From: Dictyostelium discoideum
Taxonomy: Eukaryota
NCBI GenBank assembly: GCA_000004695.1
Contig: CM000155.2
Coordinates: forward strand, 2,272,001 to 2,336,000
Length of the DNA: 64,000 bases
Direction of reading: 5' to 3'
Positions 17,490 to 31,390 of this stretch are shown one piece after another. The translations under genes and the position numbers were made by a program. The first letter of the stretch is position 1. Each line of letters begins with the position of its first letter. The notes beneath the pieces were generated by a model, which was given only the letters and a program-made list of their open reading frames with translations, had not been told where the DNA came from and searched no databases.

Positions 17490-19847
17490 TTATTTAAAAG
17501 TTAAAGAATAATTAAAAATAGTATTTAAATTTTTAATGAAAAAATTATAATGTTGAGAAGAAGTTTTTTTTGATAAATAATTAATTTTTGAATTATTAAT
17601 TGATAAATGACCAATTAAAAATAATTTAATTAAAATTTTATGTAAAATAAAACTATTACCTAGTTTTCTTTCTAATGAAATTGAACAAAATGATAAATCA
17701 TTTAAAAAACCACCATTATAAACAGAAATGAACAAAAGTTCAACATTTAAAGAAAAACCAAAAGATTTAATTTGAGAATTTGTAAAGATAATCGAATTTA
17801 AAATTGCAAAACGAATAATATTTAATGCAAAGGTTTTTGATCTCCATTTCGAAAGTCCTTTTAAAATATTTTCATTTGAAATTAATTGAGCAATTACAAA
17901 TTTAGAATTTTTTTTATTTATTTTACTAATTGAACTATAGATTTGACCTAAAATTTCGAAAACCATATTAGATACGATATCAGTATACACCTTTCTCAAT
18001 TGAGAATTGTAAAGCCACTTTCTTGCAGTTCCTGGGTTACTTTTTAACCATGACACAAACTCTGGATTAAATTTAAAATTTAGTATACTAATATCATAGA
18101 TTTTATTATCATCTTCTTGATTAAAAAAAAAAGAAGACCTTTCATCAAGTTCTACATAATGTTGTAAAATTATTGGTGAAATGTAATTAAAAAGGTCAAT
18201 TAAATTACATTGAATTGAATGAATTAACAATAAAATAAGATTTGTTTTAAAAAGTGATGGAGATGATCCATCACCAAAGCATATATTACCATGGTTGATA
18301 ATATTCTCTAAAAAACATTTATGTAATTCTTTATTACTACTACTACTGCCAGATTCAAATGCTTTTTTAATTTGATTATAATTATACTTTTTTGGAAACC
18401 TTTTAAAATAAGATTTTAATGCATTCACATCTTGATTCTTGATAATAACATTAAGAATTTCTAATGGATTATAAAAAAATGGTATTTCTTTTTCAAAAAG
18501 ATTTGATTCTATCATTTCTTTATTAACTGATTGTAAAAAGTAGTAATCAATATATTTGTGTTGTGGGAGTGGTAAAGTCTCAAACTTGACCTGTTCTCTT
18601 TTTCCAATTTTTCTAAGTTGGTAATCACAAACCCAAGAGATTTTAACATTATATAAGTTTTTTAATTCTTCAAAATAATTATCATTTAACCATATTGCTA
18701 CATCTGAATCATATATTAATCTTTGTTTGTGAATTGGTTCTTTATCTCTTTGAAAATATTTCCAGTAAAAATTTTTACATAAAACTTTTACAATATCTAG
18801 GTTAAAACTTTCAAAAATAAATCCAATTGGTATATCGAATGATTCCAATATCGATCTCTCTATACTAATTCCTAATAATTTCACAATTTCATCATTATTT
18901 TCTAATAGTGCTAAAGGTAACTTTGTTGGTGGTAGTGGTGTATATTTATATTTTTCTAATAATAATTTAAGCATAAATTGATCTTGGTATTTACTAATTG
19001 CACTAAATAAATTATTTATTGCTGAATAGAATGGATCATACAATATTTGAAATTTATTTGGGAAATATTCTAAAATTAGTGAACCAAATAGTTTTGATTG
19101 ATTTGTTTTAATTATATACTCTAAATAATGTACCAATTCTCTGAATGATACATCAATTTTTAATTCACTAAGGATGTATCTAAAAATTTCTTTTTTCTTT
19201 TTAATTTCATCATCATCATCATCATCATCACCATTTACTGTTCTTTTAAATTTATCAAACATTTTAAATATTGGTTCTATATCTATGGTTTCAATTTCGA
19301 GATACTTATTATTTATCAAGTATTTAAGTTTCTTTAAATCACAAATACCAATTATAATTGAATTATAATCAATTCTAACCAATCGAGCTATATATGGACT
19401 ATTATAATTTAATTTATTATGATATTTAATTTCCTTATTGGTTTTTTTAATTTGTTTATTAATTTCTGTTATTTCATTTTTAAATGTTTCAAAAACAATT
19501 TCAAATAATTCAAATGGTAATTCCCTCCATTTATATAATCTTTTTAAACAATATTCACTAAAATTTAAAAAATGTTTACTTTCTATTATTGATTTATTAT
19601 TATTATTATTATTATTATTTTTAAAATATTTATTATAATTATTTATTTTTTCAATTAATAATGGTTGATTTTTTGTTTTTAATATTAATTCAAGTGGGAA
19701 ATCATAATAGTTATATCCAATATATGTTTGTTCTTTATTGTGTTGTGTAATATATGAATAGATTTTATTGATTAAATATTTATTTTTGAATACTTTATAA
19801 AATAAAAAATCCATTTTCATGTTTGGGTTGGGGGAGAAAATGATCAT
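17490..19847 (-). CDS. Paralog family member B
   Basis: 785-aa ORF. The track ORF starts at 19847 (MIIFSPNPNMKMDF...). The family-consistent start is the Met at 19814 (MDFLFYKVFKNKYLINKIYSYI...YNYYDFPLELILKTKNQPLLIEKINNY). Confidence 0.7.
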   Translation of the reverse strand: MIIFSPNPNMKMDFLFYKVFKNKYLINKIYSYITQHNKEQTYIGYNYYDFPLELILKTKNQPLLIEKINNYNKYFKNNNNNNNNKSIIESKHFLNFSEYCLKRLYKWRELPFELFEIVFETFKNEITEINKQIKKTNKEIKYHNKLNYNSPYIARLVRIDYNSIIIGICDLKKLKYLINNKYLEIETIDIEPIFKMFDKFKRTVNGDDDDDDDEIKKKKEIFRYILSELKIDVSFRELVHYLEYIIKTNQSKLFGSLILEYFPNKFQILYDPFYSAINNLFSAISKYQDQFMLKLLLEKYKYTPLPPTKLPLALLENNDEIVKLLGISIERSILESFDIPIGFIFESFNLDIVKVLCKNFYWKYFQRDKEPIHKQRLIYDSDVAIWLNDNYFEELKNLYNVKISWVCDYQLRKIGKREQVKFETLPLPQHKYIDYYFLQSVNKEMIESNLFEKEIPFFYNPLEILNVIIKNQDVNALKSYFKRFPKKYNYNQIKKAFESGSSSSNKELHKCFLENIINHGNICFGDGSSPSLFKTNLILLLIHSIQCNLIDLFNYISPIILQHYVELDERSSFFFNQEDDNKIYDISILNFKFNPEFVSWLKSNPGTARKWLYNSQLRKVYTDIVSNMVFEILGQIYSSISKINKKNSKFVIAQLISNENILKGLSKWRSKTFALNIIRFAILNSIIFTNSQIKSFGFSLNVELLFISVYNGGFLNDLSFCSISLERKLGNSFILHKILIKLFLIGHLSINNSKINYLSKKTSSQHYNFFIKNLNTIFNYSLTFK
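19818..19845. repeat. Inverted-repeat arm 1 (CATGTTTGGGTTGGGGGAGAAAATGATC)
   Basis: Its reverse complement lies at 20190-20216. Arm 1 overlaps the 5' end of family gene B. Confidence 0.85.
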
Positions 19848-20189
19848 TTTTATTTTTTTTTTTTTTTTTTTATTTTTTTTTTTTTTTTATTAATTTATTA
19901 ATAAAAATTTTTTTTTTTTAACTTATTTTTTATTTTTTATTTTTTTATTTTTTTTTTTTTTTTTGTGATTTAATTTTATTTTTAGTATGAATTTAGTGGA
20001 GAGAACTCAAAATACACACGATATAATATATAAAAATTAATGTAATCATTCTGTTTATTTTTTTTGTTTTTTTTTTTTTATTTTTAGAATTCAATTATTT
20101 ATCATTCTTTTTTTTATGTAATTGTTTTTTTTTATTTTGAAAAGAGAGGGAATATATTTTATATCAATGATAAAAAAAAAAAAAAAAAA

Positions 20190-20216
20190 GATCATTTTCT
20201 CCCCCAACCCAAACAT
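20190..20216. repeat. Inverted-repeat arm 2 (GATCATTTTCTCCCCCAACCCAAACAT)
   Basis: Perfect 27-bp reverse complement of 19819-19845, flanked by complementary A/T homopolymers. Sits just 3' of the stop of family gene C. Confidence 0.85.
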
Positions 20217-20228
20217 TTTTTTTTTTAT

Positions 20229-20631
20229 TTAAAATTTTAATTTATTAAAATTTTTATTAAAAATAGTAATATTGTTATAACTAGCATTATGTATCATTGA
20301 AAAAGAAAATAATGCATTGATTTCTGGAAATTTATTTGTTGATGATATTGTTCTTAATAAACAATTATCTACATTTTTAAATGACATATATCCATTAAAA
20401 AACATTTTAATTAAAATTTTATGAAATACAAATCCTTTACCATTATTTTTATCCAAAAATGGTCTACAACATAATATTTCATTAATACTATTTTCATAAA
20501 ATGATTTTACCAAATTTTCATCATCGAAACCAAATGATTTGAATTGATTATCTGAATCTAAAACAATACCATTAATAACAGCAAAACGAATGATATTTAA
20601 AGGAATATTTTTCAAATCCTTTTTATTTTCA

Positions 20632-20669
<38 letters not shown>

Positions 20670-20673
20670 TTTA

Positions 20674-20768
<95 letters not shown>

Positions 20769-22702
20769 TTTATGATTATTATTATTAATATTTTCATACA
20801 TAATTTGATTTGATGTTAATTCTCTAATGATAAACTTTGAATCTGATTTTAAAGTTTTATTAATAATTTTATAATCAACTTTTTCATTTAAAATTTGAAA
20901 GACAGTGTGTGATAATGCATCAAAATAAAATGATTTTAAATGTGAATTGAAAAACCATTTTCTTGAGATATTATTATTTTTAGCACTTTTTAAACATTTA
21001 ATAAATTGGTGATTATATATAAAATCTTTTAAAGTAATCTTTTCATTATTCTTTATTGCTAATGAAATAAAATTAAAAAGTTCAAAAGAACCATAATCAA
21101 CACATGAAGCCAAAAATGAAATAATTGAATTCATATTATGATTTTTTGGAAAATTACAATTAAATATATTTTCTATAAAACAATTAAATAATTGTTTATT
21201 TCCACTATAAAATGCACTATTAACTTGATCGAAATTGTAATAATTTGGAAAAATATTAAAATAAGCAATCAATACTTCAACATTTTCTTCCTTTATTATA
21301 ATATCAACTAATGATGTTAAAAATGAATATTTATTATGAAGTTGTGCTAAAATTGAATATTCATTATAATTATTATTATTATTATTATTATGCTGTTGTA
21401 CTAAAAATTGTTCAGACTCTATCATTTCTTTATTGATAAAATCAAAATAACAATTTGCAATATATTGAAAAGTTTCAAATTTAACCTGTTCCCTTTTATT
21501 ATTGATTCTTAAATGTAAATCACATAGACATGAGATTTTAATTTCGTTTTTCTTTTTTTTTAATAATAAAAAATAATTATCACTTAAAAACAATGCAATT
21601 TTAGGGTCATATATTATTTGAATAGTTGAATTTCTATAAAATCTATCTGTTGTTTCATTGAATAAACTTGATTTTAATGCTTCACAAAGTACCTTTACAA
21701 TTTCTAAATCAAAATTGTTTAAAATAAATTCAAGTGGAAAATTCATTGCTTCTAAAGTTGATTTACTTATTCTAATACCTAACAATGTAAAAATTTCTGA
21801 TTCAGTTGTTGGTGTTAGTGTTGGTGTTGCTGTTGGTGGTGCAAGTGTTGTTGTTGTTGTTGTTTTTGTTGATGATGATGGTGGTGCAGGTGTTGTTGGT
21901 GCAAGTGTTGTTAGTGTTGGTGTTGGTGGTGGGGGTGGTGGTGGTGTTGGTGTTGTTGGTGGCGCAAGTGTTGTTAGTGTTAGTGTTGGTGTTGGTGTTG
22001 GTGTTGGTGTTGGTGTTGGTGTTGGTGTTGGTGGTGTTGGTGGTGTTGGTGGTGGTGTATATTTATATTTTTCTAATAATAATTTAAATATATATTGGTC
22101 TTTGTATTTAGAAATTATTTGAAATACATTGGTTAATTGATTATGTATAATTGGTAATTCTTTTGGGAATAAATCTATAATTTGTTTTCCAAAAATTTTC
22201 GATTGATCTTTAATCATAATTTCACATAAATATGTTGTTAATTGAGTAAATGATAAATCAATTTTAGATTCGTTTATTAAATATTGAAATATTTCTTTTA
22301 ATTTTATTTCTTCATCATGATGATCATGATTCACTTGGATTCTATAAATCATTTTTCTTTTTCTTTTTAATTTTCTTGAATGTATTAAACTAAAAACTGA
22401 ATTGATATTGATTGACTCAGTTTCGAGTAATTGATTATTTATTATATATTTGAGTTTATCTAAATCTCCATTAATGATTAGATAACTATGGTATAGTATT
22501 TTTTCTTTTCCATATTTATTTATTTTAATTTTTCCAATTATTTTTTCAATTTCTTTTTTAAATGTTTGAAAAATAAGTTCAAATAATTCTAATGATAATT
22601 CACTCCATTTATATAATAGTTTTAAACATTGTTCATTAAATGTTAAAAAATGTTTACTATTTAATATTGATATTTCTGAATATTTATTATTTTTATTATT
22701 AC

Positions 22703-22760
<58 letters not shown>

Positions 22761-22955
22761 TATAAAATATTTAATATAATTATTTAATTTTTCAATTAAT
22801 AATGGTTGATTCTTTGTTTTTAAAACAAGTTCTAATGGGAAATCATAATAGCTGTATCTGATTAATCTTTGTTCTTTATTATACTCTGAAATATATGAAT
22901 AGATTTTTTTCTTTAAATAAATATTTTTAAAAACCTGACTGAATAATAAATCCAT
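20229..22955 (-). CDS. Paralog family member C (expanded Pro/Thr linker and poly-Asn)
   Basis: 908-aa ORF. About 90% identical to members D and E outside the low-complexity inserts. PTPTPT...TTLAPP linker of about 130 aa. N55-like tract (ATT)n at 20640-20790. Confidence 0.75.
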
Positions 22956-23095
22956 TATATATATATAAAATAATATGTTGCTAGTTAAAAAAAAAAAAAA
23001 AAGAAAAAGAAAAATGAAAAATGAAAAAAAAAGTTTTTATAAATATATTTTTTTTTTTTTTTTTGATAAATTCTCAAAAAAAAAAAAAAACAAAA

Positions 23096-23103
23096 TCCCA
23101 CAA
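23096..23103 (+). promoter_or_regulatory. DUSE-like box (TCCCACAA) upstream of a Class I RNA gene
   Basis: Matches the Dictyostelium upstream sequence element consensus [AT]CCCA[CT]AA. About 75 nt upstream of the GTTGAC stem start. Confidence 0.55.
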
Positions 23104-23178
23104 CCAAAAATAATAAAATATGTATCACGATATATATTAATAATTATAAAAATAATTAAATGTGCAAAAACACAAATA

Positions 23179-23242
23179 AGTTGACCTTACAGCAATCTTA
23201 ACAATTTTATCACATTATAAAAAAAAACCTCAGTCAACTGTA
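23179..23242 (+). ncRNA. Class I small ncRNA gene (copy 1)
   Basis: aGTTGAC-CCTTACAGCAA-tcttaacaattttatcacattataaaaaaaaacctca-GTCAACt. The 5' and 3' ends form a 7-bp stem (AGTTGAC/GTCAACT), with the conserved 11-nt Class I motif CCTTACAGCAA directly after the 5' stem. Length about 60 nt. Confidence 0.65.
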
Positions 23243-23608
23243 TAAAGTGATAAATTTTTTTAAGTTCCTAACTTCCGAATATTAAGAGAGGTCCGAGGTT
23301 CGAAACTCCGTATAGTAACCAATAAAAGTGACCCAAATGGGGCTCAGCTTAGTTGTAGGCCCACTAAAGCTAAAAACTACAAAAAACAATTTGAATCACC
23401 CAAAAACCAAAAACCAATCAAAAAAAAAAAAAAAAAGATTTAAAAAAAGAATGGAAAAAAAGTTATACATAACTTTTTTTTATTTAAAATTTTAATTTAT
23501 TAAAATTTTCATTAAAAATAGAAATATTATTATAACTAGAATTACGTATCATTGAAAAAGAAAATAAGGCATTGATTTCTGGAAATTTATTTGTTGATGA
23601 TAATGTTC

Positions 23609-25951
23609 TTAATGAACGATTTCCTTTATCTTTAAATGACATATATCCATTAAAAACATTTTAATTAAAATTTTATGAAATACAAATCCTTTACCATTAT
23701 TTTTATCCAATAATTGTTTACTACATAATATTTCATCAATACTATTTTCATATAACGATTTTACTAAATCTTCATCATCGAAACCAAATGATTTGAATTG
23801 GTTATCTGAATCTAAAACAATACCATTAATAACAGCAAAACGAATGATATTTAAAGGAATATTTTTCAAATCCTTTATATTTTCATTATTATTATTAATA
23901 TTATTATCATTATTATTACAATACATAATTTGGTTTGATATTAATTCTCCAATGATAAACTTTGAATCTGATTTTAAAGCTTTACGAATAATTCCATAAT
24001 CAACTTTTTTATTTAAAATTTGAAAGACTGTATGTGATAATGCATCAGAATAAATTGATTTTAAATGTGAATTGATAAACCATTTTCTTGAGATATTATT
24101 ATTATTTTTTGCACTTTTTAAACATTTAATAAATCGATAATTATTAATAAAATCATTTAAAGTAATCTTTTCATTATTCTTAATTGTTAATGAAATAAAA
24201 TTAAAAAGTTTAAAAGAACCATAATCGATACATGAAGCCAAAAATGAAATAATTGAAATTATATTATAATTGTATGGAAAATTACCATTAAATATATTTT
24301 CTATAAAACAATTAAATAATTGTTTATTTCCACTATAAAATGCACTATTAACTTGATCGAAATTGTAATAATTTGGAAAAATACTAAAATGAGCAATCAA
24401 TACTTCAACATTTTCTTCCTTTATTATAATATCAACTAATGATGTTAAAAATGGATATTTATTAAAATTAATTTGCTGTTGCGCTAATAATGAATTATTA
24501 TAATAATTATTAATATTATTATTATTTTGTCGTGCTAAAAATTGTTCAGACTCTATCATTTCTTTATTGATAGTATCAAAATAACAATTTAAAATATATT
24601 GAGAAGTTTCAAATTTAACCTGTTCCCTTTTACCAATGATTCTTAATTGTAAATCACATAGCCATGAGATTTTAATTTCATTTTTCTTTTTTTTTAATAA
24701 TAAAAAATAATTATCACTTAAAAACAATGCAATTTTAGGGTCATATATTATATGATTAGTTGGGCATGTATTGAATTTATCTGTTGTTTCATTGAATAAT
24801 CTTGATTTTAATGCTTCACAAAGTACCTTTACAATTTCTAAATCAAAATTGTTTAAAATAAATTCAAGTGGAAAATTCATTGCTTCTAAAGTTGATTTAC
24901 TTATTCTAATACCTAACAATGTAAAAATTTCTGATTCGGTTGTTGTTGATGTTGCTTTTGTTGCTGTTGTTGGTGGTACAAGTGTTGGTGTTGGTGTTTG
25001 TGTTGGTGTTGGTGTTGGTGTTGGTGGTGTTGGTGGTGTATATTTATATTTATCTAATAATAATTTAAATATATATTGATCTTTAAATTTAGAAATTATA
25101 TCAAATACATTGGTTAATTGCTTATGTATGATTGGTAATTCTTTTGGAAATAATTCTATAATTTGTTTTCCAAATATTTTCGATTGATCTGTAATCATAA
25201 TTTCACATAGATATGTTGTTAATTGAGTAAATGATAAATAAATTTTATATTCATTTATTAAATATTGAAATATTTCTTGTAATTTTATTTCTTCATCATG
25301 ATTCACTTGGATTGTAATTTCAGAACGAATCATTTTTCTTTTTCTTTTTAATTTTCTTGAATGTATTAAACTAAAAACTGAATTGATATTGATTGACTCA
25401 GTTTCGAGTAATTGATTATTTATTATATATTTGAGTTTATCTAAATCTCCATTACTGATTAAATTAATATGGTGTTGTATTTTTTCTTTTCCATCTTTAT
25501 TTATTTTTTTAATTTTTCCAATTATTTCTTCAATTTCTTTTTTAAATGTTTGAAAAATAAGTTCAAATAATTCTAATGATAATTCACCCCATTTATATAA
25601 TAGTTTTAAACATTGTTCATTAAATGTTAAAAAATGTTTACTATTTAATATTGATATTTCTGAATACTGATTATTATCGTTATTATTATTATTTTTATTA
25701 TTACTATTATTATTATTTTTTTTTTTATTACTATTATTTTTATTATTATTATTATTTTTAAAATATTTATTAAAATTATTTAATTTTTCAATTAATAATG
25801 GTTGATTCTTTGTTTTTAAAACGAGTTCTAATGGGAAATCATAATAGTTATATCTGATTAATCTTTGTTCTTTATTATACTCTGAAATATATGAATAGAT
25901 TTTTTTCTTTAAATAAATATTTTTAAAAACCTGACTGAATAATAAATCCAT
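23609..25951 (-). CDS. Paralog family member D (C-terminus altered by a 1-nt deletion)
   Basis: 780-aa ORF. Collinear with C and E up to ...GKGFVFHKILIKMF, then a frame change (ttaaaaacatttt versus E ttaaaaaacaattt) gives a short aberrant tail. DNA homology continues 3' of the new stop. Confidence 0.7.
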   Translation of the reverse strand: MDLLFSQVFKNIYLKKKIYSYISEYNKEQRLIRYNYYDFPLELVLKTKNQPLLIEKLNNFNKYFKNNNNNKNNSNKKKNNNNSNNKNNNNNDNNQYSEISILNSKHFLTFNEQCLKLLYKWGELSLELFELIFQTFKKEIEEIIGKIKKINKDGKEKIQHHINLISNGDLDKLKYIINNQLLETESININSVFSLIHSRKLKRKRKMIRSEITIQVNHDEEIKLQEIFQYLINEYKIYLSFTQLTTYLCEIMITDQSKIFGKQIIELFPKELPIIHKQLTNVFDIISKFKDQYIFKLLLDKYKYTPPTPPTPTPTPTQTPTPTLVPPTTATKATSTTTESEIFTLLGIRISKSTLEAMNFPLEFILNNFDLEIVKVLCEALKSRLFNETTDKFNTCPTNHIIYDPKIALFLSDNYFLLLKKKKNEIKISWLCDLQLRIIGKREQVKFETSQYILNCYFDTINKEMIESEQFLARQNNNNINNYYNNSLLAQQQINFNKYPFLTSLVDIIIKEENVEVLIAHFSIFPNYYNFDQVNSAFYSGNKQLFNCFIENIFNGNFPYNYNIISIISFLASCIDYGSFKLFNFISLTIKNNEKITLNDFINNYRFIKCLKSAKNNNNISRKWFINSHLKSIYSDALSHTVFQILNKKVDYGIIRKALKSDSKFIIGELISNQIMYCNNNDNNINNNNENIKDLKNIPLNIIRFAVINGIVLDSDNQFKSFGFDDEDLVKSLYENSIDEILCSKQLLDKNNGKGFVFHKILIKMFLMDICHLKIKEIVH

Positions 25952-26088
25952 TTAATATATTAATAGGTTGTTAATCAAAATAAAAGAAAAAAAAAAGAAA
26001 AAGAAAAAAAAAGTTTTTTTAATTTTTTTTTTTTTTTTTTGATAAATTCTCAAAAAAAAAAAAAAAATAAAAAAAAGAGGAAAGAAAA

Positions 26089-26096
26089 TCCCACAA
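26089..26096 (+). promoter_or_regulatory. DUSE-like box (TCCCACAA), copy 2
   Basis: Same spacing (about 75 nt) to the second Class I RNA. Confidence 0.55.
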
Positions 26097-26170
26097 CCAA
26101 AAATTATAAATATTTATCAGGATATATATTAATTATTTTAAAAATAATTAAATGTGCAAAAACACAAATA

Positions 26171-26233
26171 AGTTGACCTTACAGCAATCTTAACAAAATT
26201 TTTTCTGAATAAAAAAACCTAAGTCAACTGTAT
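26171..26233 (+). ncRNA. Class I small ncRNA gene (copy 2)
   Basis: AGTTGAC-CCTTACAGCAA-tcttaacaaaattttttctgaataaaaaaacctaa-GTCAACTgtat. A partial copy of the 3' half (aaaacctaagtcaactgtatc) recurs at 26321-26345. Confidence 0.65.
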
Positions 26234-26559
26234 CTTTTATAAAATTTTTTCTAAAACCTAAGTCTTTTTTTTTTGAATTGGATAACGCAATTATTATTTG
26301 CTTCTCCTTGAGGTTATTCTAAAACCTAAGTCAACTGTATCTTTATAAAATTTTTTAAGGTTCGAACTCCCAAGCTAAAGATGTCCTAGGTTCGAAACTC
26401 GGTCACGAATCAAATTAATGTGACCCAAAATGGGGCTCACCTTGTTGTAGTCTTACTAAAGCTAAAAACAATCAAACCACCCAAAAACAGTAAAAAACTA
26501 AAAACCAACCAACATTCAAATTTAAAAAAGAATGGAAAAAAGTTATATATAAATATATT

Positions 26560-26982
26560 TTAAAATTTTAATTTATTAAAATCTTCATTAAAAATAGTAA
26601 TATTGTTATAATTAGCATTACGTATCATTGAAAAAGAAATTAATGCATTGATTTCTGGAAATTTATTTGTTGATGATAATGTTCTTAATAAACGATTTCC
26701 TTTAACTTTAAATGACATATATCCATTAAAAAACAATTTAATTAAAATTCTATGAAATACAAATCCTCTACCATTATTTTTATCCAATAATGGTCTACTA
26801 CATAATATTTCATTGATACTATTTTCATAAAATGATTTTACCAAATTTTCATCATCGAAACCAAATGATTTGAATTGAATATCTGAATCTAAAACAATAC
26901 CATTAATAACAGCAAAACGAATGATATTTAAAGGAATATTTTTCAAATCCATTTTATTTTCATTATTATTTTCATTATTGTA

Positions 26983-27072
<90 letters not shown>

Positions 27073-29019
27073 ATATATAATTTGGTTTGATGTTAATTCT
27101 CTAATGATAAACTTTGAATCTGATTTTAAAGCTTTATGAGTAATTCTATAATCGACTTTTTTGTTTAAAATTTGAAAGACAGTATGTGATAATGCATCAA
27201 AATAAAATGATTTTAAATGTGAATTGATAAACCATTTTCTTGAGATATTATTATTACTTTTAACACTTTTTAAACATTCAATAAATTGATAATTACTAAT
27301 AAAATATTCTATACTAATATTTTCATTATTCTTTATTGTTAATGAAATAAAATTAAAAAGTTTGAAAGAACCATAATCGATACATGAAGCCAAAAATGAA
27401 ATAATTGAAAATATATTATAATTGTATGGAAAATTACCATTAAATATATTTTCTATAAAACAATTAAATAATTGTTTATTTCCACTATAAAATGCATTAT
27501 TAACTTGATTGAAATTGTAATAATTTGGAAAAATATTAAAATAAGCAATCAATGCTCCAACATCTTCTTCCATTACTATAATATCAACAAATGATGTTAA
27601 AAATGAATAATTATTATTATAATAATTATTATGCTGTTGTGCTAAAAATTGTTCAGACTCTATCATTTCTTTATTGATAAAATCAAAATAACAATTTGCA
27701 ATATATTGAGAAGTTTCAAATTTAACCTGTTCCCTTTTACCAACGATTCTTAATCGTAAATCACATAGCCATGAGATTTTAATTTCGTTTTTCTTTTTTT
27801 TTAATAATAAAAAATAATTATCACTTAAAAACAATGCAATTTTAGGGTCATATATTATTTGAATAGTTGAATTTGTATTAAATTTATCTGTTGTTTCATT
27901 GAGTAATCTTGATTTTAATGCTTCGCAAAGTACCTTTACAATTTCTAAATCAAAATTGTTTAAAATAAATTCAAGTGGGAAATTCATTGCTTCTAAAGTT
28001 GATTTACTTATTCTAATACCTAACAATGTAAAAATTTCTGATTCGGTTGTTGTTGGTGTTGGTGTTGGTGTTGGTGTTGGTTTTTTTGTTGGTGTTTGTG
28101 GTGGTACAAGTGTTGGTGTTGGTGTTGGTGGTGGTGTTGGTGGTGTTGGTGGTGGTGTATATTTATATTTATCTAATAATAATTTAAATATAAATTGGTC
28201 TTTGTATTTAGAAATTATTTGAAATACATTGGTTAATTGATTATGTATAATTGGTAATTCTTTTGGAAATAATTCTATAATTTGTTTTCCAAATATTTTC
28301 GATTGATCTTTAATCATAATTTCACATAAATATGTTGTTAATTGAGTGAATGATAAATCAATTTTTGATTCTTTTATTAAATATTGAAATATTTCTTGTA
28401 ATTTTATTTCTTCATCATGATGATCATGATTCACTTGGATTGTAATTTCAGAACGAATCATTTTTCTTTTTCTTTTTAATTTTCTTGAATGTATTAAACT
28501 AAAAACTGAATTGAAGTTGATTGATTCAGTTTCGAGTAATTGATTATCTATTATATATTTGAGTTTATCTAAATCTCCATTACTGATTAAATTAATATGG
28601 TGTTGTATTTTTTCTTTTCTATATTTATTTATTTTTTTAATTTTTCCAATTAATTTCTCAATTTCTTTTTTAAATGTTTGAAAAATAAGTTCAAATAATT
28701 CTAATGGTAATTCACTCCATTTATATAATAGTTTTAAACATTGTTCATTAAATGTTAAAAAATGTTTACTATTTAATATTGATATTTCTGAATACTGATT
28801 ATTATTATTATTAATATTATTATTTTTAAAATATTTATTATAATTATTTAATTTTTCAATTAATAATGGTTGATTCTTTGTTTTTAAAACGAGTTCTAAT
28901 GGGAAATCATAATAGTTATATCTGATAGATCTCTGTTCTTTATTATACTCTGAAATATATGAATAGATTTTTTTCTTTAAATAAATATTTTTAAAAACCT
29001 GACTGAATAATAAATCCAT
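26560..29019 (-). CDS. Paralog family member E
   Basis: 819-aa ORF with an intact family C-terminus (...NNITIFNEDFNKLKF*). Confidence 0.75.
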
Positions 29020-29087
29020 ATTATATATAAAAAAAAAAAAGAAAAAGAAGTTTTTTTTTTTTTTACAAATTGTTGTAGGGAATTTTC

Positions 29088-29157
29088 AATAAAATTTCAC
29101 TACAGTAGCGTAGTGAATTTTATTATTTAATTTCACTACAGTAGCGTAGTGAAAAAA
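29088..29157 (+). repeat. Two direct copies of a 23-bp hairpin-capable motif (ATTTCACTACAGTAGCGTAGTGAA), spaced 40 bp apart
   Basis: Each unit contains the 6-bp inverted repeat CACTAC...GTAGTG around AGTAGC. Lies next to the retroelement remnant. Confidence 0.7.
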
Positions 29158-29580
29158 AAAAATCACTGACCCTAAATTTTTTTTTTTTTCAAAAAACAAA
29201 TAAAGTTTATTAAATTATTATCTTTTATTTGAATATTAGCTCTATTTAAGGTTTTTTAATTTTTTTTTTTTAATTTAATTTTTTTTTTTTTTAATTTAAT
29301 TTTTTTTTTTTTTTTTGCGCCAAAATTTTTTTTTTTTTTCCCCAACAAAACTTTTTTTTTTTTTTTTTTTTTTTTTATTTTCATTTTCCCAAAATGAAAC
29401 AAGATAAATTATTTAAAATTTATTGAAGATAATAATTTTGAAAATACTAAACATAAAAATTATAAATTTTTACATGATGAGTAAATATTTTTCCTTACCA
29501 TAACACAATCATTTTTTAAATTCTGACCAATAAAAAACAGAAACAGAAAAGAAAAATTATTTAGAATTGAAAAAAAAGTC

Positions 29581-30424
29581 ATGAATTGTGGCGGAGATAG
29601 AAATATATCAAAAGAAGTGTGTTTAGAAGTAATTAATGATTATAGAATGGTATCACTCTGGGAAGAAATGCATAAAGGTCATATAGGAAGAGATGCAACC
29701 TATGGGAACTACAAGACTAAATATTATAATATGGGATTGTATTCTTTTGTATCTGATGCAGTAGATACGTGTGACATTTGCCAACGAAATAGAATAAAAG
29801 GTTTGGTATCAATCATTTTTTATATGATGTTTTGTAACTTTTATATTAAAACTCTGTGAAAGTATGGCACTGCGATAATGGACGTGAATTTAAAAACAAA
29901 GTCCAAAAAGAATTCCTAAAACTTTTTCCAGGCTCCAAGTCAGCACATGGAGCTCCTCGTACACCAACAACTCAAGGTATGGTAGAAAGATTGAATCGAA
30001 CTATCAAGGAGAGGATCTCAAAATTAAAACAACAAGAGTATGATATTGTGAACAATATAAATTATCGATATGTTTATTAATTAATCATTTATAAATAAAT
30101 TTTAGTTTTCTTGATGGTACTTCTAGGTCTCTTTCTGAACTATTAAAACAAGCTTTGTATGATTACAATAATACAAAAACAAGAACAATTAAAATGACAC
30201 CATCTCAAGCTGTTGGTATTGTTCCTTTGTTTATTAATGTTCAATCAGAACAAGACTCTCAATCAATTGGTGTTTCAGATGTTTCAAAAGAAGAAAGAAC
30301 AGCTATTATTCTTGAAAATCTCACAAGTTACCAAAATCAATGGAATTCAAAACCACCAAAGGGATTGAAAGTTGGTGATACTGTACTCTTTCTAGAAATT
30401 AAAAAAAATAATGTAAGTAATTAA
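29581..30424 (+). mobile_element. Degenerate LTR-retrotransposon (Ty3/gypsy-type) integrase remnant
   Basis: Three broken ORFs. (1) HHCC zinc finger: H-KGH-IGRDATYGNYKTKYYNMGLYSFVSDAVDTCDICQ. (2) C-terminal half of the rve core: WHCDNGREFKN...GAPRTPTTQGMVERLNRTIKERI. (3) C-terminal SH3-like region (GLKVGDTVLF). The DD part of the DDE triad is missing and the reading frames are broken. Confidence 0.7.
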
Positions 30425-30479
30425 AACATAAAGATTAATAATATATGAAACAGTAATAATTATCAAATTTTATATTTAA

Positions 30480-30698
30480 TTCTAATAGATAATATTGATT
30501 TTAGGTATAATAATAAGGGGGTTCTGGAAGACACTATACTGCTCTATAAACTTGAGTTTTTGGAAGACGGACTAATCGCCTGAATACAAGGTCATACTCT
30601 GTGTTGGNGAAGGGAACAAACCATGGATGTTTATAACATGCGAACTTGATATTGTTAGAGCATTGTCCTCATACATGAAGATACNGACTCTTTTACTT
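30480..30698 (+). other. GC-richer non-coding block adjoining the integrase remnant (possible LTR or UTR fragment), running into the assembly gap
   Basis: Composition differs from the AT-rich spacer. Bounded by the N-run. Confidence 0.25.
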
Positions 30699-30802
30699 CT
30701 GGNNNNNNNNNNNNNNNNNNNNNNNNNNNNNNNNNNNNNNNNNNNNNNNNNNNNNNNNNNNNNNNNNNNNNNNNNNNNNNNNNNNNNNNNNNNNNNNNNN
30801 NN
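30699..30802. other. Assembly gap (N run)
   Basis: 104 N. Confidence 1.
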
Positions 30803-31127
30803 TATTAAAAGTTTCAAAATCTAATTCCTTCCAAACTAGTAATGATTTTAAACATTCTTTATTAAAATCTAAATAATATTTGGTAATGATACTACTACTG
30901 CTAATGACTTCATCATCATTTGATTCACCTTTGATTATATATTTATTATAAAATTTAATTTTCTCTAATAGTAATATTTGATTTCTACTCTTTATTACCA
31001 TCTCTAATGGGAATTCGTAAAAATTATATGTTAAATATAATAAACTCTCATTATATTGTCTAATAAATTTAAATATAATATTATTTAAATAATTATTTTT
31101 AAAAACACTAAAAAATAATGTATCCAT
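30803..31127 (-). CDS. Paralog family member F, N-terminal fragment; the 3' part is lost to the gap and retroelement
   Basis: MDTLFFSVFKNNYLNNIIFKFIRQYNESLLYLTYNFYEFPLEMVIKSRNQILLLEKIKFYNKY... The likely start Met is at 31127-31125. The ORF runs into the N gap. Confidence 0.55.
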
Positions 31128-31390
31128 TGAAAAATGTAAAAAAAAATGCAAAAAATAAAATAATGATGTGTTTTTTCTCCCAAAAATAATAATAATAAAA
31201 AAAAAAAAATTTAAAAATCTTGCAAATATCCAATTAAAAAAAAAAAAAAATTTTTTTTTTATTTTAAAATCTATACTTTTTTAGATAAATAAAGAGTACT
31301 TATAATAATAATACTCTTTATTCTTCAAAATAAAAAAAATGAACGATAAATAATTTAATTGTAAAAATAAACTTTTTGGTTGAAAAAAAA

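Follow-up and report, generated by a model that had tools for sequence, protein, structure and literature searches.

The spacer between two minus-strand open reading frames (ORFs) on chromosome 6 of Dictyostelium discoideum raises the question whether it holds a gene for a small non-coding RNA and, if so, which RNA this is, from which promoter it is made and how it relates to its neighbors. The spacer lies in a stretch of 64,000 nucleotides that was analyzed as a whole (hereafter the window, to which all positions refer). A first-pass annotation, made from the letters of the sequence, had proposed a Class I small non-coding RNA gene at this place, based on an upstream DUSE promoter element, a terminal GTTGAC stem and a conserved 11-nt motif.

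The locus is the DdR-59 gene, an identification that we regard as practically certain and that no observation contradicts. We are also highly confident that the segment 23096-23261 (+) is a complete transcription unit and corresponds to DdR-59, a catalogued Dictyostelium Class I RNA of D. discoideum chromosome 6. DdR-59 is already known: dictyBase and the literature on Class I RNAs have listed it for years, and a study of 2021 validated its expression. The gene itself adds no new biology, and the value of the analysis is chiefly one of calibration, namely that a lineage-specific non-coding RNA family could be recognized from raw sequence by its promoter, stem and motif. Additionally, we describe the gap in read numbers between DdR-59 and its tandem paralog DdR-60, a predicted hairpin of the DdR-59 precursor, the probable decay of the neighboring DdR-61 and a GC-rich island downstream of the RNA genes, which are unpublished as far as we found.

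Sequence searches and reference data

The whole 64-kb window was scanned against Rfam 15 at gathering thresholds; for the family Dicty_Class_I_RNA (RF01414) the gathering score is 41.5. The curated D. discoideum set of 37 Class I genes, with sequences and coordinates, came from the code published as a supplement to Kjellin et al. 2021 (Genome Res 31:436, PMC7919456). Covariation of the closing stem was evaluated in a set of 30 Class I members from D. discoideum and D. firmibasis. A single offset of 2,272,000 places the dictyBase entries r59, r60 (2298172-2298230) and r61 (2298272-2298337) on the window. As one offset fits all three entries, the window corresponds to positions 2,272,001-2,336,000 of AX4 chromosome 6 (DDB0232433), plus strand. 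The features of the locus are collected in Table 1.

Table 1. Features of the DdR-59 locus and its surroundings, in window coordinates
Feature	Position	Strand	Basis
DUSE TCCCACAA, upstream promoter element of DdR-59	23096-23103	+	Pattern match; r59 DUSE in MEME output, Tables S2/S3 (PMC7919456)
TGTG box AAATGTG, second promoter element or precursor start	23158-23164	+	Sequence; Table S2 (PMC7919456)
DdR-59 mature Class I RNA GTTGACCTTACAGCAATCTTAACAATTTTATCACATTATAAAAAAAAACCTCAGTCAACTGT	23180-23241	+	Rfam, curated sequence, dictyBase coordinates, published reads
Closing stem, 5' half GUUGAC, starting with the invariant G	23180-23185	+	Minimum free energy (MFE) fold; family covariation
11-nt Class I motif CCUUACAGCAA	23185-23195	+	Exact match; predicted unpaired; first C also closes the stem
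Closing stem, 3' half GUCAAC (23233-23238), with CUGU end (23238-23241)	23233-23241	+	Sequence, fold, family consensus
T7 run, putative Pol III terminator	23255-23261	+	Sequence; ~14 nt beyond the mature 3' end
Paralogous unit: DUSE (26089-26096), TGTG box (26150-26156), DdR-60 RNA (26172-26231)	26089-26231	+	Rfam, curated sequence, alignment
DdR-61 (dictyBase r61), degenerate Class I-like segment	26272-26337	+	dictyBase coordinates; repeat analysis
Tandem orphan genes	17490-19847, 20229-22955, 23609-25951, 26560-29019; fragment 30693-31151	-	ORFs

Identity of the RNA gene

Three Rfam matches were obtained in the window at gathering thresholds, namely a tRNA-Gln and two matches to Dicty_Class_I_RNA that both cover the full model. 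One of the latter lies at 23180-23240 (+), with 57.0 bits and E = 1.9e-08, and spans model positions 1-56 of 56. Even at E ≤ 10, the site is matched by no further Rfam family. This segment is identical to the curated DdR-59 sequence (61 of 61 nt, 100%; PMC7919456), and dictyBase r59 (DDB_G0295633), located at DDB0232433:2295180-2295241, has the same coordinates as window positions 23180-23241. The proposal of a Class I gene with a DUSE promoter is thus borne out by a score above the gathering score, by identity with DdR-59 and by the coordinates of r59. The alignment to known Class I RNAs, which had been suggested as a check, gives the same answer, and the stem and the motif are also common to DdR-21. 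In Tables S2 and S3 of PMC7919456, r59/DdR-59 is the first-listed D. discoideum locus, with a covariance-model (CM) score of 56.9 and a classifier score of 74.37, the top value among the rows listed.

The locus is 99.84% identical over 10.7 kb in an independent D. discoideum assembly (GCA_054883475.1), in which both RNA genes are unchanged and which also encodes the 908-aa protein adjoining DdR-59. By the covariance model DdR-59 is 61 nt long, or 62 nt with the terminal U, within the family range of ~42-65 nt (median ~60; 58 in the curated D. discoideum set). Its GC content of 29.5% is slightly below the 32-41% quoted for the family (PMC7919456), which is a descriptive statistic and no criterion of membership. 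The gene is intergenic, between the minus-strand ORFs 20229-22955 and 23609-25951, and is clustered with DdR-60, which lies 2,992 bp downstream. Every family-defining feature is intact in DdR-59.

Promoter elements

The DUSE that the first-pass annotation had read upstream of the gene is present exactly where it was placed. In Table S2 of PMC7919456, the r59 row gives the same DUSE (TCCCACAA) and the TGTG box AAATGTG, with an inter_dist of 61 and a TGTG-box_dist of 14. On the window the starts of the two elements are 62 nt apart, with 54 nt between the elements, and the TGTG box ends 15 nt upstream of the +1 G. The distance from the DUSE to +1 is 76 nt, in agreement with the ~75 nt noted earlier, versus a canonical distance of ~60 nt. 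The gap is this wide because the TGTG box, which had been overlooked, stands in between, ~60 nt downstream of the DUSE. Many D. discoideum Class I genes have their TGTG box ~60 nt 3' of the DUSE, while its spacing to the mature 5' end varies (PMC7919456). DdR-59 therefore carries the DUSE of the family, defined as [AT]CCCA[CT]AA ~60 nt upstream of the transcription start or of a TGTG box. A DUSE is present before all expressed Class I genes, whereas the TGTG box, reported upstream of Class I genes only, may be either a promoter element or the start of the precursor (PMC7919456).

The DUSE consensus by itself is not enriched in the 64-kb window (6 observed versus 10 expected), so that only the spaced DUSE/TGTG composite is informative. 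The composite DUSE-N48..60-AAATGTG occurs twice in the window versus 0.02 times expected, a count of two that was reached in 0 of 100 shuffles, and both copies sit immediately 5' of the covariance-model matches of DdR-59 and DdR-60. Expression of DdR-59 is very probably driven by this DUSE/TGTG pair. A scan for bacterial-type promoters and terminators gave nothing above shuffles and is irrelevant to a eukaryote.

Closing stem, motif and 3' end

The closing stem of DdR-59 pairs GUUGAC with GUCAAC in six of six positions, and its first pair joins the invariant 5' G to a C. The two stem halves, of which the 3' one is followed by TGT on the window, had been recognized correctly in the first-pass annotation, but the stem had been counted as 7 bp. 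In the mature RNA it has 6 bp because the G is the first nucleotide of D. discoideum Class I RNAs (PMC7919456), and the additional pair a23179/t23239 exists in the DNA only. Similarly, the motif CCTTACAGCAA was rightly placed at the 3' side of the 5' stem half, although the notation GTTGAC|CCTTACAGCAA counts twice the one C that stem and motif share. The distance to the stem partner, estimated at about 45 nt, is 37 nt from the motif to the 3' stem half and 47 nt from stem to stem. The 5' G is preceded by the genomic AA of the family (...aaataaG, 23174-23180), and the RNA ends in its CTGT (23238-23241). The CUGU 3' end is near-invariant in Class I RNAs (PMC7919456).

Under a first-order Markov model, 0.003 exact occurrences of the 11-mer CCTTACAGCAA are expected in 64 kb versus two observed; with one mismatch allowed, the expectation for the window is 0.5. 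That it is indeed the family motif follows from the curated set, in which 27 of the 34 distinct D. discoideum sequences carry it exactly and at the same position. In the MFE structure of DdR-59 the motif is unpaired and GUUGAC pairs with GUCAAC. The loop is variable and A-rich.

The RNAalifold consensus of the family consists of precisely this 6-bp terminal stem. Across the 30 members, 97.2% of the cells in the stem alignment are paired and four of the six pairs have changed on both sides. None of 500 shuffles equaled the pairing or the covariation score, and the paired fraction fell to ~30-35% when the 3' partner was shifted by a single column. The folding energy of the mature RNA is unremarkable (DdR-59: MFE -3.8 kcal/mol, z = -1.06; DdR-60: z = -0.47), as is to be expected for a 6-bp stem that closes an open loop of 47 nt. 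The stem consequently rests on family covariation, and thermodynamics alone would have missed DdR-59. T runs such as the one downstream of DdR-59 follow many Class I genes (PMC7919456). As they are also common in the AT-rich DNA of this region, the T7 run is weak evidence for a terminator.

DdR-60 and the abundance gap

The second Class I match belongs to DdR-60 (RF01414, 53.5 bits at 26172-26230; 59 of 59 nt identical to the curated DdR-60). The promoter-plus-gene segments of DdR-59 and DdR-60 are 86.6% identical. Both have the same DUSE, the same TGTG box and the same 22 nt leading from this box to +1, whereas the stretch between the DUSE and the TGTG box differs by six substitutions and a 1-nt indel, which changes the spacing by 1 nt. 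Both RNAs share the stem, the motif, the first 23 nt and the CUGU end, and both genes are part of a duplicated unit of ~3 kb. They differ in the variable part, which is 74% identical, and in the sequence before the 3' stem half, which is CCUAAG in DdR-60 and CCUCAG in DdR-59.

Published RNA-seq reports 3,416-7,833 reads per library for DdR-59, based on six libraries that cover developmental times of 0, 4 and 8 h (PMC7919456, Table S2). The lack of small-RNA reads that had been named as evidence against a Class I gene is thus not what is seen; the 'Read coverage' column of the same table gives 1 for r59. In every library, the published reads of DdR-60 exceed those of DdR-59 by a factor of 159-199 (~180-fold), which makes DdR-59 the minor partner of the tandem pair. 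No discussion of this difference was found in PMC7919456. Since the promoters are near-identical and the reads differ ~180-fold, the DdR-59/DdR-60 locus could serve as a natural experiment on what sets the abundance of Class I RNAs and on whether a precursor starts at the TGTG box.

The two precursors differ in predicted structure. When DdR-59 is folded together with its 3' trailer (MFE -13.6 kcal/mol, z = -2.39), the loop segment 23206-23219 pairs with the trailer segment 23241-23254, thereby displacing the closing stem. Within 23191-23269, the loop and its own trailer form 29-nt arms that are 76% complementary and contain a near-perfect 14-nt core. Unlike this, the DdR-60 precursor retains its closing stem (z = -0.02) and has no equivalent hairpin. 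Judged from these folding models, the loop-trailer hairpin could impair the processing of DdR-59 and so contribute to its low level.

A further difference is that DdR-60 is followed by a partial duplication, the segment annotated as DdR-61. This segment originated as a 107-bp partial tandem duplication of the 3' end of DdR-60, which left a direct repeat (26214-26249 / 26321-26356). DdR-61 has no match to the Class I covariance model at E ≤ 10 and lacks the 11-nt motif, the 5' stem half and a DUSE of its own, on which grounds we rejected it as a third functional Class I gene. We take it for a probable relic that has kept its gene annotation, in line with the curated set of 2021, which does not list it (PMC7919456).

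The alternative that survives best is that DdR-59 is itself a decaying duplicate, i.e., a copy of the DdR-60 unit that is transcribed weakly, lacks a function of its own and is going the way of DdR-61. Its read deficit despite a near-identical DUSE, TGTG box and spacing would be explained by such decay, as would a precursor hairpin that replaces the closing stem and is absent from DdR-60, and DdR-61 demonstrates that Class I copies do degenerate at this locus. However, DdR-59 retains all defining features, its CM and classifier scores are above those of DdR-60, and several thousand reads per library represent clear expression. Moreover, a corresponding pair in D. firmibasis, of which one member has the loop and 3' positions specific to DdR-59, suggests that both paralogs have been kept. 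We therefore consider decay unlikely and treat DdR-59 as an intact, expressed Class I gene.

The corresponding pair in D. firmibasis

The D. firmibasis RNAs DfiR-5 and DfiR-3 share one contig (AJWH01006067.1) and one strand. They are separated by 2,913 bp, and their order matches that of DdR-59 and DdR-60, whose distance is 2,992 bp. Each is preceded by a DUSE and an AAATGTG box that are 61-62 nt apart, as in the D. discoideum pair. DfiR-5 has UCUUAACAAU, CACAU and CCUCAG in common with DdR-59, and DfiR-3 has AUUUUUUCUGA and AAG in common with DdR-60. DfiR-5 differs from DdR-59 in that its motif contains CCUCACAGCAA and its TGTG box stands 50 nt from +1 versus 14 nt in DdR-59. The variable regions of the DfiR and DdR sequences are 72-78% identical, a range in which, for sequences this short, an ortholog is barely separable from a paralog. 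Judged by order, spacing and these shared positions, DfiR-5/DfiR-3 are the probable orthologs of DdR-59/DdR-60, and the tandem Class I pair probably predates the split of D. discoideum and D. firmibasis.

The orphan gene array

The Class I pair is embedded in an array (17490-31151) of paralogous orphan genes, at least four or five in number, whose proteins have 780-908 aa and contain poly-N and Pro/Thr-rich tracts. No Pfam domain was found in the three array proteins scanned (17490-19847, 20229-22955 and 26560-29019). A search for homologs, run with the family protein's non-repetitive core, returned one further relative only, a D. discoideum paralog according to its NCBI label. Whereas its paralogs end in …NKLKF, the copy at 23609-25951 terminates early (…KIKEIVH), and a frameshift or an unrecognized intron may be the reason. 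Short plus-strand ORFs within the PT tracts are mirror-frame artefacts. In the duplicated unit of ~3 kb, a single protein gene is combined with a single Class I gene. Class I units are present in two array spacers only; the spacers 19848-20228 and 29020 onward have none.

The first-pass annotation had located the RNA gene about 220 bp upstream of the ATG of a family gene. The distance holds, with the ATG (22955) 225 bp away, but the protein gene is on the minus strand and hence divergent from the RNA gene. Such a layout allows the alternative that the DUSE/Class I unit acts mainly in cis, as a bidirectional promoter or insulator for the divergent orphan gene, with the RNA as a by-product. RNA and protein genes were duplicated jointly and the DUSE is only 141 bp from the protein ATG. 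Against this, Class I genes elsewhere in the genome are found in intergenic settings of many unrelated kinds, as well as in clusters of RNA genes only, the remaining array spacers do without a Class I unit, and conservation resides within the RNA (stem covariation and motif), for which a purely DNA-level role offers no explanation. We judge a mainly cis-acting role highly improbable. Finally, a chance co-occurrence of motifs in AT-rich DNA, or another DUSE-driven small RNA such as an snRNA or snoRNA, could draw on the lack of enrichment of the DUSE alone and on the insignificant fold energy, yet it is already refuted by the frequencies of the composite promoter and the exact 11-mer, the Rfam results and the identity with a published, expressed RNA, and its probability is negligible.

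Three SNORD28-like matches (20529-20595, 23783-23849 and 26860-26926, all +) reach 23-25 bits versus a gathering score of 50, with E = 2-5. They occupy paralogous positions antisense to the family genes and were set aside as chance matches, most likely spread by duplication.

The downstream GC-rich island

A GC-rich island is located 3' of each Class I gene, at 23262-23420 and 26379-26511 (+). Its GC content is 38-41% versus a background of ~15%, the two copies are 76% identical, and it is found nowhere else in the window. The islands hold all three GGTTCGAA sites of the 64 kb, including the consensus B box GTTCGAAAC; this B-box match lies at 23298-23306 (+), 57 nt 3' of the end of DdR-59.

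Neither a tRNA (ARAGORN) nor an Rfam match at E ≤ 10 was found in the island, and there was no consistent excess fold on either strand, for which reasons a structured RNA or tRNA remnant with a recognizable fold was rejected. No stringent A box (TRRYNNARYNG, 30-60 nt upstream) partners the B box, so the combination of GTTCRANNC B box, A box and tRNA-like fold that marks a tRNA-type Pol III gene does not occur here. The B box was also discarded as a significant feature in itself: GTTCRANNC occurs 11 times in the 64 kb, which is the genomic background rate (PMC5391098), and the A box is lacking, which leaves the B box as a weak lead. Possible readings of the island are a TFIIIC site resembling an external B box, a remnant of a tRNA or retroelement, or the 3' UTR of the minus-strand neighbor.

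External B boxes are found behind many Dictyostelium tRNA genes. By extension, GTTCGAAAC in the island might be an external B box bound by TFIIIC, in which case a hybrid promoter would make both DdR-59 and DdR-60 Pol III units. In parallel, the hairpin could account for the lower level of DdR-59. We consider this combination very unlikely. If it were true, a DUSE/TGTG promoter with a downstream B box would settle which polymerase makes the Class I RNAs.

Transcription and proposed mode of action

Following the family literature, transcription of DdR-59 would depend on the DUSE, would probably be carried out by Pol III and would end at the T7 run. It may start at the TGTG box and give a precursor of ~100 nt, which would be trimmed at both ends to the mature RNA including its CUGU end. 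The authors of PMC7919456 favor Pol III because T runs follow many Class I genes. However, a DUSE is used by Pol II genes as well as by Pol III genes (PMC7919456, citing Hinas et al. 2006), and the genome is rich in T runs; on balance we lean towards Pol III for DdR-59. Dictyostelium snRNA genes (U1-U6; by analogy with PSE-type promoters) have a DUSE of the same consensus ~60 nt before their start. [quoted passage not shown]

Class I RNAs are mainly cytoplasmic. For DdR-21, the functionally studied member, direct binding by Rnp1A, an essential protein with two RRMs, was reported, and this RNA also associates with three further proteins (PMC7919456). [quoted passage not shown] DdR-21 resembles DdR-59 in its GUUGAC/GUCAAC stem, its identical 11-nt motif and its CUG(U) end (55 versus 61 nt), but has another variable region and belongs to a cluster on chromosome 4. 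The structure probing, the Rnp1A binding and the knockout phenotype are data on DdR-21, not on DdR-59 (PMC7919456).

By analogy with the family, DdR-59 would act in the cytoplasm as a protein-binding RNA, and its stem and single-stranded motif may provide a platform for Rnp1A (CIBP), an essential RRM protein, and the three other proteins. Through buffering or sequestering of proteins, changes in Class I RNA levels during starvation may tune early multicellular development, as the authors suggest (PMC7919456). For DdR-59 specifically, we put forward an Rnp1A-binding or sponge mode of action as a tentative proposal, somewhat short of an even chance.

Other features of the window

The tRNA-Gln(UUG) gene at 14132-14204 (+) is supported by Rfam (67.4 bits) and ARAGORN and has the internal B box GTTCGAGTC. 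An external B box, GTTCAAATC, begins 36 nt beyond its end (region 14132-14248). Many Dictyostelium tRNA genes are known to have an internal and an external B box arranged in this way. At the end of the orphan gene array lies a retroelement fragment (29581-30802), of which the ORF 29581-29859 (+) matches Pfam Integrase_H2C2 (E = 6e-09). The window contains two assembly gaps, namely an N run at 30703-30802, after the integrase ORF, and another gap of 100 N at 48575-48674.
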